A stretch of DNA of 64,000 nt. Origin: Escherichia phage vB_EcoM_ESCO8. A model generated the notes under the pieces. That model was not told the origin of the DNA and ran no database searches. It worked only from the letters and a program-made list of their open reading frames with translations. The stretch's first letter is position 1. Each line of letters begins with the position of its first letter. The stretch is taken from sequence record OM386653.1; one strand, written 5' to 3'. The translations under genes and the position numbers were made by a program. Below are positions 3,508 through 12,413 of the stretch, piece by piece.

Positions 3508-3810
3508 TTACTCCTTAAAAAAATCATTGACAATTAAACTGATAACGCCCAGCACCAGATCACCAGGTAGCGCCGCGCTTTCGTTGTTGCTTGTTTGCAC
3601 TTCCTCACTAGTACCAGCATGATAAATCGCATGGTAAGCAATAGTATAATAACCTTTCGTTATTTCTTTAAGATTAATGATTAGCACGTTATTTGTTTCA
3701 TCTTGAAACAATTTAGCGGTGATAGTATTGTTTTCTTTTACACTATCGACTTTTATTGATGGATCATTTACACCAGAAAAAAGAAAAAACGTTTTAGCTA
3801 TGCCGTTCAT
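3508..3810 (-). CDS. hypothetical protein
   Basis: ORF track 100 aa. Confidence 0.5.
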   Translation of the reverse strand: MNGIAKTFFLFSGVNDPSIKVDSVKENNTITAKLFQDETNNVLIINLKEITKGYYTIAYHAIYHAGTSEEVQTSNNESAALPGDLVLGVISLIVNDFFKE

Positions 3811-9342: not shown

Positions 9343-9469
9343 CGTTATCAACCTTTTATAAGTAATGTTATTGTGACGGTGGATTGTGGAGATCCTCACC
9401 TTTGCCCGTCCTGCATTGCGCCCTCCTTTTGTTTATTGTCGTTGTGCCTCGCCCCCCTCGACAAGATGA

Positions 9470-9498
9470 ATAATACGCTACCAGGTGAGGAACGTCAA
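9470..9498 (-). promoter_or_regulatory. near-consensus sigma70 promoter (leftward, head of early gene array)
   Basis: Minus strand TTGACG-17nt-TATTAT; GC-rich ~120-nt leader follows. Confidence 0.5.
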
Positions 9499-9532
9499 CC
9501 CCTTTTTTAATCTTTTTTCATTTCTTTTTTGC

Positions 9533-9562
9533 TTGCTATCTATAAAGGAAAGGGGCTATTAT
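9533..9562 (+). promoter_or_regulatory. sigma70-like promoter (rightward)
   Basis: TTGCTA-18nt-TATTAT upstream of ORF starting 9610. Confidence 0.4.
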
Positions 9563-9609
9563 CTTTCTACCGCGCCAACCAGGGCGCACATCAAAGAAAG
9601 GGCGATACC

Positions 9610-9876
9610 ATGACAAATACTACTTTACACCTCATGCACTCATTAGGCTGGCAAGGCGGCACGGTGCACCAGGTAGCAAGCGCAACGGGCTTAAAGGTTG
9701 AAACCGTTCTCAACCTGGGCGATCATAAGGTGGAAGAAATAGATCATTTTGATACGTTCGCAAATGGTTATCTATGGGCTTGCAGTGGCGGCGGGGAAAG
9801 CAAGATCCCGCCAGGGGCGCGGGGCGACATGTATTTTTGGCTAGGTGTCCTATCCTGGCAAGAAAACAAAAAATAA
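9610..9876 (+). CDS. hypothetical protein (88 aa) in GC-rich island
   Basis: ORF track frame 9529..9876 trimmed to ATG with AAGGG-type RBS; local GC content clearly above surrounding AT-rich genes. Confidence 0.4.
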   Translation: MTNTTLHLMHSLGWQGGTVHQVASATGLKVETVLNLGDHKVEEIDHFDTFANGYLWACSGGGESKIPPGARGDMYFWLGVLSWQENKK

Positions 9877-9878
9877 TC

Positions 9879-9907
9879 TTGACAAGCCCAGGGATCGGGC
9901 TTATACT
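9879..9907 (+). promoter_or_regulatory. near-consensus sigma70 promoter (rightward)
   Basis: TTGACA-17nt-TATACT; spacer contains inverted repeat AGCCC/GGGCT; no obvious CDS downstream before repeat region. Confidence 0.5.
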
Positions 9908-10140
9908 GTTTTACATACAGAAGAGGAAGCGCCACCCCCACGGCGTAAAGGCGGGGCTAACATACCAGGGCACTACTGGTTGGAAGGTTGATCGCCGGTA
10001 GCTCGTCTAAAATAAATTTGTAAAGAAATGTAAAGATAAAAATAATCGCTTGCTTTTGTTGTTGGTTATGCTATTCTTATTGTATGGCGAGGGGACACGG
10101 GAGCGCGAGACAAACACCGCCCCTGCGCGTTATTCTCTAA

Positions 10141-10250
10141 ATGAGAAAATTCTCATTTGCTAATGATTCTCATTCTCTTACTGAGAATGATTATCACTTA
10201 CATACTTAAATGATAATGATTCTCATTTACAAATGAAAATGATTATCATA
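10141..10250. repeat. Cluster of Fur-box-like / ATGAGAA-TTCTCAT palindromic repeats
   Basis: Repeated units AATGATTCTCATT, GAGAATGATTATCA, AATGATAATGATTCTCATT, AATGAAAATGATTATCA resembling GATAATGATAATCATTATC. Confidence 0.45.
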
Positions 10251-10269
10251 CGCACACCCATAAAAACAC

Positions 10270-10480
10270 GAAATTGAACTTTTCATTTTTGATTTTTCTA
10301 CGGAAAAAGGCAAAAAACTTTAAATAAACTGGGGAATTTTTAAAAAATTGAAGTTTTCATTTTCAAAATCTGGATAGAAATACGTACAAAAACTTTAAAT
10401 AATTTTGACCAAACTTGAACTTTTCATTTTCAAAATTTGTACCCAAAAATCTGTAAAAACTTTAAATAATTTTGTCCTTT
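10270..10480. repeat. Three tandem ~70-bp direct repeats (iteron-like)
   Basis: Unit TTGAAC/G-TTTTCATTTTCAAAAT...AACTTTAAATAA recurs at 10274, 10348, 10415 with 67-74 bp period. Confidence 0.6.
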
Positions 10481-10688
10481 TTATAAAAATGATTTTACTG
10501 TTCTGTTATAAGTAGTAGTTAAGAGATAGTATGCCTTTTAAAGATCAGATACCATAGTCAAACAAACAAATTAAATACTTTATTAACAGAGTACAGAATA
10601 ATATTTACTCTGGATATATTATTCAGAGGGTGGATTTCCGTACATGAAACCCACACCCCTTTTTATAAAAATAAAAATTTTCAAAATA

Positions 10689-11240
10689 TCAGGAAATATC
10701 AGATTGTGCTTTTAGATAAACAGCAAGGTCTGTATGCCATTTTCCTAAAAGATTTTGTCCTTTCCAACAGTCCTTATTTTCCACATCACGATCCCACATT
10801 CCCATTTTGATACCATAAATAGAATCATAAGGGCTTGCCTCTACGAACTCCTTATCTGCGTAAGCGATAAGTTTATTTTTGAGATCTTCATTTTGTGTGT
10901 ATTTAAGATACAAACCACGCTTGACAATCTTCTCCCGTAAAGAAGTCCAAGTAGCTTCATCGTAATCTTTAACTAATCTACCTAGTCGCTTATAATATGC
11001 CTGTTCTTTTTCTCCTGTATATCTTAGATCTCCGGTTAAAATAGAAGATGCAATGTTGTAATCATAAAACAAACATGCTTTTCTCCACATCATATATTGT
11101 TCCACACAAGTAAATTCAACAGAACTTGTAATAGAATTATTATACTTGGGAGCTAAAGGTTCAATAAAAGATGATAGATACCAGTTGCTAAATTCATCTT
11201 TTGCCGAGAAGAAGAACACATACTTATCAGTAATCCGCAT
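10689..11240 (-). CDS. NADAR-domain protein (YbiA-like)
   Basis: 183 aa; motifs FFFS..EFSNWY, VEQY..W.KA, and C-terminal GIKMGMW...G.N.LGK.H align with E. coli YbiA-type NADAR pattern. Confidence 0.65.
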   Translation of the reverse strand: MRITDKYVFFFSAKDEFSNWYLSSFIEPLAPKYNNSITSSVEFTCVEQYMMWRKACLFYDYNIASSILTGDLRYTGEKEQAYYKRLGRLVKDYDEATWTSLREKIVKRGLYLKYTQNEDLKNKLIAYADKEFVEASPYDSIYGIKMGMWDRDVENKDCWKGQNLLGKWHTDLAVYLKAQSDIS

Positions 11241-12413
11241 TTACATCTCCTTACTGTATACTAATTTGCCACCATATTGTGTAATAATTTTTTGAAGATT
11301 TTCCAAATCAGAAACACTTACTGTTTCTGTATAACCATCTTTCAACTCTCTTGCCGTTAAAATACCAGTTTTTAATTTTTTCTTTATAGCTCTTTCAGCA
11401 GCCCTACATTGTTTCACTGTGCTAAAATCATATAAACAAATACGCCCCATAAAAAACAGATTACGGCTCTTTTGACCGTTTAATCGTCTATCGCTATCTT
11501 TAGATATACCAAACTTAAGAGCAACTATAATATCATTATCTTTAACAATATTAATATATAATTGCTGTTGATTATGACCAGCACACTGTGGACAACCTTG
11601 ACCGAGGCTTAATAAATTACGAGCACTCCCTATCTGCTCACCATGCACAAGACAAAGATATTTAAACTTACCTATAGAAGAGGGTTTGGTAATCCAATCT
11701 ACCCAGACATACCCTTTCCCTTCTACTTCCTTTTTTACCCTATAGGTGATCTGGTCTTCTGTATACTGATAGTTCCCACAACGACACGGAATATACCCTT
11801 GTTTAAGGTTATGTCCTGCAGAGTAAAATTTACCATCACAAACACCTGCTTGAACATATTCATCATGGGAGCAAACAGGACACTCAACCATCCATACTGC
11901 ATCACGCTTGTTACGTTTCCCTGTATTGGTGAAGATAGTGCCTTCCTTAAATTCCCCTGTAGAAAAGAAATCTGCAATATGTTGATCGTCGGACATTGTT
12001 TGTCTCTCCCTCTTACATTGTGGACAACCGCTACCACGTTTAAAATTGTTAATACTTGTAGTATCCCATTTATTACCACAATGACACAACAAATCAAGTT
12101 TTGTTTTATTCCCTTTCCATTCTCCCACGTACCCTAACACCTGATACCCCCTCTTCTGTGCTATCTCTTCCAAGATCGGCAATTCTGTTTCCCATGTTAA
12201 CGGCTTCTTACCAGAACAGATAGGACAACCACGTCCCTTCTTAAAATCATTAATGTTCGTGGTGTTCCACTCTCCATGTTTAGGACAAGATAGCTTAAGT
12301 TTAGTCTTGTTCCCTTTCCATTCACCAACATAACCCAGGATTTGAATATTGCGATTTTTAGCAAGGGGTGTTAATTCTTCTTTATATTGTTCCCATGATT
12401 TTGGTGCTGTCAT
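11241..12413 (-). CDS. T5orf172 (GIY-YIG-like) domain protein with tandem zinc-ribbon modules
   Basis: 390 aa; three repeats of GYVGEWKGNKTKL..C..HG.W.TT.IN.FK.G.GCP.C followed by C-terminal LYINIV..GIS...RRL segment typical of T5orf172. Confidence 0.55.
   Translation of the reverse strand: MTAPKSWEQYKEELTPLAKNRNIQILGYVGEWKGNKTKLKLSCPKHGEWNTTNINDFKKGRGCPICSGKKPLTWETELPILEEIAQKRGYQVLGYVGEWKGNKTKLDLLCHCGNKWDTTSINNFKRGSGCPQCKRERQTMSDDQHIADFFSTGEFKEGTIFTNTGKRNKRDAVWMVECPVCSHDEYVQAGVCDGKFYSAGHNLKQGYIPCRCGNYQYTEDQITYRVKKEVEGKGYVWVDWITKPSSIGKFKYLCLVHGEQIGSARNLLSLGQGCPQCAGHNQQQLYINIVKDNDIIVALKFGISKDSDRRLNGQKSRNLFFMGRICLYDFSTVKQCRAAERAIKKKLKTGILTARELKDGYTETVSVSDLENLQKIITQYGGKLVYSKEM

Follow-up and report, generated by a model that had tools for sequence, protein, structure and literature searches.

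Predicted high-affinity Fur sites form a conserved array in a non-coding module of a phi92-like coliphage

A stretch of 64,000 nucleotides (nt) from Escherichia phage vB_EcoM_ESCO8 (sequence record OM386653.1; hereafter the window, meaning the whole stretch at its full length) was analysed around a repeat cluster which a first-pass annotation had described as Fur-box-like and as part of an intergenic control region. The phage is a phi92-like myovirus (Justusliebigvirus, Stephanstirmvirinae). The cluster was borne out: four strong boxes of the Fur type and a decayed one lie at positions 10140-10253, the array extends 3 nt past the end originally given, and the repeat unit named at that time, AATGATAATGATTCTCATT, sits exactly at 10209-10227. 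Since two conserved sigma-70 promoters, here called P1 and P2, lie directly upstream, "control region" was a fair description. We propose that 10140-10253 is an array of predicted high-affinity sites for the iron-bound Fur protein of the host (Fe-Fur), placed in a conserved module and acting on transcription from P2 in an iron-dependent manner, and we give this reading a probability of about 0.45. Binding of purified Fur to the array in vitro is very likely, and the array has probably been maintained by selection for Fur binding.

Comparison of the window with the 19-bp Fur consensus GATAATGATAATCATTATC revealed only five sites with four or fewer mismatches in 64 kb, four of them in the array. 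The phage boxes carry 3-4 mismatches (Table 1) as compared to 3-8 for the sites of 13 E. coli promoters. A weight matrix was built from the best site per promoter of 13 E. coli K-12 Fur-regulated promoter regions (NC_000913.3), the phage sequence not being used. The five top positions of the window all fell in the array (21.3, 20.7, 20.4, 16.8, and 16.0 bits), the next position elsewhere reaching 15.4 bits. The E. coli training sites themselves scored 10.4-20.5 bits and the four strong phage boxes 16.8-21.3 bits. Matrix scoring, the check suggested by the first-pass annotation, thus showed boxes that match or exceed E. coli operators, unlike random AT-rich DNA.

The four boxes also differ from the 7-1-7 motif TGATAATnATTATCA at only one or two of 14 positions, and a single other site in the window has two mismatches or fewer. 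Each strong unit contains one 7-1-7 motif within Fur hexamers in a forward-forward-x-reverse(-reverse) layout, and each strong site has a partner at an offset of 6 bp, giving the groups 10153/10159, 10177/10183/10189, 10206/10212, and 10229/10235/10241. Sites that overlap with an offset of exactly 6 (or 3) bp are a hallmark of Fur site clusters, and the five-hexamer forward-forward-x-reverse-reverse layout showed the tightest binding, with a Kd of 0.78 nM and three dimers (Chen et al., Table 1, PMC2189734). A repeat search returned four direct copies with a spacing of 24, 29, and 23 nt as well as inverted pairs with 75-89% complementarity. The array combines the 19-bp palindrome, the matrix score, the 7-1-7 repeat and the 6-bp offsets of a Fur operator cluster; judged by sequence, its boxes are optimal Fur sites and not a vague AT-rich resemblance.

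The cluster is real and far beyond chance. In 200 dinucleotide shuffles of the window, the mean number of sites with at least 16 bits was 0.47 and the maximum 3; six positions with at least 14 bits were observed within 130 nt, against three or fewer in the shuffles. Of 2000 shuffles of the local 25%-GC stretch, 1.6% contained a site of at least 16 bits, and none contained more than one. In 622 kb of unrelated viral contigs, five sites of at least 16 bits were found, and two positions of at least 14 bits never fell within 130 nt of each other.

The count was extended to the complete 145-kb genome, with the rest of phage outra used as the remainder. Nine sites of at least 16 bits were found where about one is expected by chance: four in the array, three in a second gap without open reading frames (ORFs), one at the start of the glutaredoxin gene and one elsewhere, so that seven of the nine lie in two ORF-free gaps. 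The second gap is AT-rich, 1.7 kb long (outra 111,732-113,480; L108 1733-3481) and situated about 0.8-2.5 kb beyond window position 1. Its boxes score 20.0, 24.2, and 18.8 bits, the 24.2-bit box reading GCAAATGATAATCATTATC. Two of the second-gap boxes are located directly 3' of promoter-like hexamers reading toward a block of small early genes, and these two are found at matching positions of phAPEC8 (L231 2793 and 2972/2978) despite a regional identity of about 72%. The box at the glutaredoxin gene (19.9 bits; outra 138,326-138,344; L108 28327-28345) overlaps the gene start, and the ribonucleotide reductase genes lie in that stretch too. Fur represses the nrdHIEF operon of E. coli.

The conservation of the array was followed in 23 loci carrying the non-coding element RNA1 (Table 1) as an anchor. 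These comprised seven GenBank phages of Justusliebigvirus, Phapecoctavirus and Seunavirus, with Escherichia, Klebsiella, Salmonella, and Cronobacter as listed hosts, and 16 IMG/VR contigs. A box of at least 13.7 bits stands behind P2 in all 23 loci, at 178-197 nt from the anchor in 21 of them, while the other two contain insertions. In most lineages this box 0 reaches 17-21 bits (AATGAGAATGATT(A/C)TCATT in phAPEC8, PVP-SE1, and GAP31), and the phi92 copy scores 13.7 bits. In the genus of the window, box 0 has decayed by a deletion of 1-2 nt and the extra boxes A-D have arisen downstream. The number of boxes per locus ranges from one (a double site) to about five, several being lineage-specific insertions. 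A cluster that is kept while its single sites turn over, as the alignments suggest here, is the usual pattern of selected binding-site arrays.

Box clusters of the same type were found in phages outside this group. A blastn search with the gap that holds the array matched two T5-like phages over the boxes only. In T5, Gostya9, and EC104, box clusters lie inside the ORF-free repeat region of the injection stop signal (iss). The T5 boxes (9549-9718; L109 5550-5719) reach 19.8 bits and surround the calculated shear point of first-step transfer at 9618, the Gostya9 boxes (L004 2348-2603) reach 21.7 bits, and those of EC104 are located at L005 2411-2575. The T5-type clusters adjoin DnaA boxes and a LexA-type palindrome (TACTGTATAAATATACAGTA in Gostya9). 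In Davison's analysis of the T5 region, the repeats were ascribed to DnaA and to unknown roles, and Fur was never mentioned. A pattern scan of IMG/VR matched at least 120 loci, 14 of which had three or more strong boxes within 250 nt; the dense arrays include one on a jumbo contig of 345,809 bp. Non-coding arrays made up of four to six near-consensus boxes were seen on unrelated IMG/VR viral contigs with 21-53% GC (Table 1), among them one upstream of a terminase-like operon (L110). Two contigs with 52-53% GC have five boxes each, present as isolated AT-rich 19-mers 45-70 bp apart in GC-rich non-coding DNA.

When 50,697 phage records were searched by tblastn with E. coli Fur, only 31 gave matches. 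None of the 31 carries the name of an Escherichia, Klebsiella or Cronobacter phage, and the one Salmonella record among them is a fragment of 1.9 kb. Host Fur is therefore the likely binder and the economical answer, because the motif is a full-strength enterobacterial one, is common to unrelated phages and is not accompanied by a phage Fur in the tblastn search. The first-pass annotation had left the choice between an iron-responsive host repressor and a phage regulator; the former is favoured, as the boxes are also kept across phages of different hosts. Other candidates were rejected. For the DNA-binding protein A2 of T5, none of 12 sampled matches came from a 145-150-kb phage (11 belonged to records of 108-120 kb and one to a 1.6-kb fragment). 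The best match to the Zur consensus still had mismatches at 10 of 23 positions, and no DnaA, LexA or IHF consensus was found in the gap. Capture of the array from a host was likewise rejected, as blastn against 5,426 E. coli genomes revealed no homologous promoter and short matches had E values of 0.03 or higher.

Alignments of 7 and then 18 diverse relatives showed that the boxes are part of a plus-strand module with the order P1, RNA1, direct repeat, P2, hairpin, Fur boxes, and three 67-nt repeats (Table 1). In the 18 sequences, the TTG of the -35 hexamer and the residues A-11 and T-7 of the -10 hexamer are invariant in both P1 and P2 and the spacers have been replaced between lineages, which argues that both are working promoters. 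In relatives, P2 reads TTGCAA-17-TATATT. Seunavirus-type relatives possess a different promoter, TTGACA-18-GAAAAT, 3' of their boxes. The weak promoter candidate within boxes C and D was rejected as not conserved: phage inny, with GAAAATGATTCTCATTAAC as its box D, no longer has the -10 hexamer.

Table 1. Features of the non-coding module and its flanks in window coordinates (box scores in bits of the Fur weight matrix), followed by arrays on unrelated contigs in contig coordinates
Feature	Position	Strand	Description
gp224-like ORF, left flank	9610..9876	+	88 aa; phi92 annotation; PHROG 19316 (unknown function)
P1, strong sigma-70 promoter	9879..9907	+	TTGACA-17-TATACT; 11/12 consensus; inferred start ~9914
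RNA1, conserved GC-rich non-coding element	~9914..10025	+	80-97% identity across both subfamilies
Direct repeat	10019..10036	.	TGTAAAGA-N2-TGTAAAGA; directly 5' of P2; nearly invariant in 18 sequences
P2, extended -10 promoter	10050..10077	+	TTGCTT-16-(TG)c-TATTCT; from conservation; inferred start ~10084
GC-rich hairpin	10086..10129	+	At the 5' end of the inferred P2 transcript; conserved loop ACAAACACC; predicted by folding 10084-10262
Box 0, decayed palindrome	10140..10157	.	AATGAGAAAATTCTCATT; below 4 bits in the window; positional homologue of the strongest, universally kept box of relatives
Box A	10158..10177	.	TGCTAATGATTCTCATTCTC; 21.3 bits; 19-mer at 10159 with 3 mismatches; 2/14 mismatches to 7-1-7; reverse strand hexamers GAGAAT-GAGAAT-C-ATTAGC; partner site 6 bp off at 10153
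Box B	10182..10201	.	TGAGAATGATTATCACTTAC; 16.8 bits; 19-mer at 10183 with 4 mismatches; 1/14 mismatches to 7-1-7; partner sites at 10177 and 10189, 6 bp off each
Box C	10206..10230	.	TTAAAT-GATAAT-G-ATTCTC-ATTTAC; five-hexamer forward-forward-x-reverse-reverse; 19-mers 6 bp apart at 10212 (20.4 bits, 3 mismatches) and 10206 (14.3 bits); 1/14 mismatches to 7-1-7
Box D	10229..10253	.	ACAAAT-GAAAAT-G-ATTATC-ATACGC; 19-mers at 6-bp steps at 10235 (20.7 bits, 4 mismatches), 10229 (16.0 bits) and 10241 (7.4 bits); 1/14 mismatches to 7-1-7
Weak candidate promoter (rejected)	10220..10249	+	TTCTCA-18-TATCAT; 9/12 consensus; wholly within boxes C and D
Three 67-nt AT-rich direct repeats, iteron-like	10270..10477	.	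Copies at 10270, 10344 and 10411; spacing 74 and 67 nt
gp223-like NADAR (YbiA-like) gene, right flank	10689..11240	-	Pfam NADAR, E = 2e-36; phi92 annotation
Array on contig L110	5700-5950
Array on contig L136	4040-4290
Array on contig L176	5780-5920
Array on contig L135	2540-2780
Array on contig L169	76-320

In iron-replete cells, Fe-Fur dimers would cover a stretch of about 115 bp that begins some 57 nt past the inferred P2 start. This coat of Fur would serve as an operator or roadblock that keeps early transcription from P2 and P1 out of the AT-rich repeats and the convergent gene behind them, whereas under iron scarcity Fur would depart and transcription would pass through. The output of the module could be a non-coding transcript or the transcriptional activation of the origin-like repeat region, and it would be tied to the iron status of the host because the Fur block would be present only in iron-replete cells. 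The region is taken as an early region because near-consensus sigma-70 promoters stand before the homologous genes of phAPEC8. The specific mechanism of a roadblock or operator is a tentative proposal, which we hold with less assurance than the iron-dependent reading as a whole.

Several observations weigh against such an action on P2. Relative to the inferred P2 start, the boxes occupy +57 to +170, unlike in classical Fur repression over the -35 and -10 hexamers, and the sole promoter-like element that they overlap is the weak, non-conserved candidate at 10220-10249. P2 itself is argued only from conservation, since with 8/12 consensus positions it falls under the cut-off of the promoter scan. 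As the flanking genes converge, there is no obvious protein-coding target downstream. The fixed distance between box 0 and P2 could reflect inheritance of one conserved block. Finally, similar arrays occur elsewhere in other contexts, such as the T5 iss and GC-rich contigs without an obvious promoter, and these contexts fit a context-free role, e.g., that of a sponge, better.

The main rival explanation, which we consider unlikely, is indeed that near-consensus sites on a genome replicating to high copy number act as a sponge which titrates host Fur and for which no promoter context is needed. Titration of Fur by multicopy sites is the principle of the Fur titration assay, and Fur is present at several thousand molecules per cell. 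Loss of free Fur would derepress iron uptake, RyhB and nrdHIEF and would thereby aid the iron-dependent nucleotide synthesis of the phage, which encodes both ribonucleotide reductase chains and a glutaredoxin. Box scores at or above those of natural operators, as decoys would have, the variable number of boxes, the further strong boxes in the second gap and the occurrence of arrays in unrelated phages and varied contexts (T5 iss, the jumbo contig, GC-rich contigs) are all in line with a sponge. However, box 0 is fixed behind P2 in all relatives and second-gap boxes follow directly after -10-like hexamers, which suggests action in cis. The stoichiometry is uncertain, at roughly 10-20 dimers per genome times the copy number, and derepression of outer-membrane receptors could harm the progeny phage. 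A roadblock and a sponge do not exclude each other.

It is considerably less probable that the boxes are operators of a protein other than Fur, be it a phage regulator or another host factor, and that their likeness to Fur sites is coincidence or mimicry. The boxes do have a slightly extended motif of their own, TTAAATGA(G/T)AAT.ATT.TCATTT; a 25-nt sequence, TTAAATGCGAATCATTATCATTTGC, is identical in phAPEC8 and the T5-like Gostya9; the motif recurs in the second non-coding gap of the same phage; and many small early proteins of unknown function are encoded near the array. However, an extended motif is expected of Fur hexamer arrays, and the E. coli training sites often contain GAGAAT hexamers. 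Moreover, the phage groups sharing the motif have no detected common regulator; the tblastn search returned no Fur homologue from Escherichia, Klebsiella or Cronobacter phage records, none of the 12 sampled A2 matches came from a phage of 145-150 kb, and the Zur, DnaA, LexA, and IHF consensus sequences do not fit.

The least probable alternative, that the palindromes work without Fur, forming either hairpins in the transcript from P2 or cruciforms within a region resembling an origin, would agree with the 75-89% complementarity of the box arms and with the predicted folding of the 10084-10262 RNA into three AU-rich hairpins (box 0, A+B, and C+D; -51.3 kcal/mol, z = -6.45 versus shuffles), but any palindromic operator array would fold likewise, the isolated 19-mers of GC-rich contigs would give only weak AU stems of 7 bp, and sequence-specific recognition is preferred because the lineages keep identical box bases and not compensating pairs.

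The conservation of the array in all relatives examined and its recurrence in unrelated phages such as T5 suggest that these phages read or manipulate the host iron signal. In a wider and rather doubtful extension of this idea, Fur-box arrays would be a general device of large virulent enterobacterial phages (phi92/rV5-like, T5-like, jumbo, and other contigs) that use the iron sensor of the host as a resource, as a sponge, as a structural factor at an origin-like region or in the T5 injection stop. Such a device, if real, would be unlike the mere carriage of a Fur-repressed gene.

Other elements of the module were examined as well. RNA1, about 110 nt long and read from P1, is a candidate phage small RNA conserved across Stephanstirmvirinae and Vequintavirinae-type phages. 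Its consensus fold comprises 16 pairs; a single pair covaries, being A-U in 9 sequences and G-C in 8, and the others are invariant. Its folding energy is unremarkable (z = -0.42). Neither the search of the window against Rfam at the gathering threshold nor that of 9850-10700 at E values up to 10 gave a match to RNA1; the former returned no match at all, and the latter nothing beyond a PrrF hit below threshold over the boxes and some microRNA precursors matched by chance. A tRNA scan found none. The TGTAAAGA repeat may be the site of a second DNA-binding factor. Its reverse complement was also seen next to the Fur-box cluster of the jumbo contig (L117 ~3600-3620). In the hairpin, the loop is kept and the stem sequences differ between lineages, as judged by alignment with covariation not formally counted. 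A short ORF starting with ATG at 10084 was rejected as coding because it is not kept in frame in PVP-SE1 (alignment read by eye).

Three repeats of 64-67 nt with a different sequence occupy the place of the 67-nt repeats in PVP-SE1 (spacing 67 and 75 nt) and in the IMG/VR locus L104 (67 and 74 nt). The repeat coordinates in these two other lineages are L019 1785-1993 and L104 2270-2474. The annotated gene 202 of PVP-SE1 is probably not real, since the direct repeats overlap it.

The array lies within an 812-bp ORF-free gap (9877-10688) flanked by convergent genes, and the GC content of 10130-10690 is 25%. The remaining genes from position 1 to about 15,400 are all on the minus strand. Over 9400-11300, the window shares 99.9% identity with Escherichia phage outra and 97-98% with phi92 and some 50 further isolates. 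The non-coding DNA is also 94-97% identical between this E. coli group and five records named Campylobacter phage (e.g., A150 and A110a; 146,366 bp), which probably carry a wrong host label or reflect contamination. The flanking proteins, of which the gp224-like one has no Pfam match, were considered as a clue to the role of the array and were of no help. Adjoining the NADAR gene is an ORF of 390 aa (11241-12413) with repeated CxxC-containing modules, called endonuclease in several relatives. Its gene measures 1,398 nt in phage alia versus 1,173 nt here and therefore looks variable and possibly mobile.

Fur boxes are familiar from textbooks as elements of bacterial iron genes, and a few cargo genes of temperate phages have them too; the setting described here appears to be new. 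Literature searches, some of them loose, returned nothing that ties Fur to non-coding regions of lytic phages or to first-step transfer of T5, and we found no published description of a conserved multi-site array of predicted Fur sites in the non-coding core of a lytic phage or of Fur-type boxes in the T5 iss. If Fur binds, infection by widespread, therapy-relevant coliphages with a broad host range would be wired to the iron status of the host cell, and iron is a variable that the animal host manipulates during infection. The injection stop signal of T5 has lacked an explanation for over 50 years, and the T5 boxes provide a concrete, testable candidate for a part of it. The hypothesis makes a sharp prediction that is inexpensive to put to a first test.

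Compared with known systems, the repeat region looks like a transcription-activated origin. T7 initiates from tandem promoters and an AT-rich region, T4 from a promoter and an unwinding element, and lambda possesses iterons. The module resembles these origins in that a pair of promoters in tandem points into a 25%-GC stretch containing three regular direct repeats, an arrangement found in three lineages. No TTWTNCACA was found in 9877-10688 and no initiator protein was found; the cumulative GC skew turns near 16 kb, at the switch of gene strand, and not at the array. We know of no origin that carries a Fur array. The T5 iss is similar to the array locus in being ORF-free, repeat-rich and situated between convergent genes with a cluster of similar boxes, and it differs in belonging to an unrelated siphovirus family and in lying within the terminal repeat. 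The T5-type series of DnaA boxes and the LexA palindrome, present in T5 and Gostya9, were not found at the array locus.

The E. coli Fur operators at fepA-fes, fepD-entS, fepB-entC, ryhB, and fhuA share with the phage array the 19-bp 9-1-9 and the 7-1-7 motif, the GAGAAT, GATAAT, and ATTATC hexamers, the 6-bp overlaps and the capacity for several dimers (PMC2189734). Unlike these operators, the array consists of four to five separate units over 115 bp, belongs to a virulent phage and is positioned downstream of a promoter, and neither an iron gene nor a coding gene follows it. In Stx1 phages, a Fur box is present at the stx1 promoter. Temperate lambdoid coliphages carry a Fur box at the sitABCD cargo genes (PMC6969025). 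The boxes of temperate-phage cargo genes resemble the array in placing a host Fur box on a phage genome with a link to the iron regulon. However, they are single boxes at the promoters of accessory genes expressed from a prophage, whereas the boxes described here are arrayed in non-coding core DNA of a phage that is strictly lytic, and they are conserved across subfamilies.

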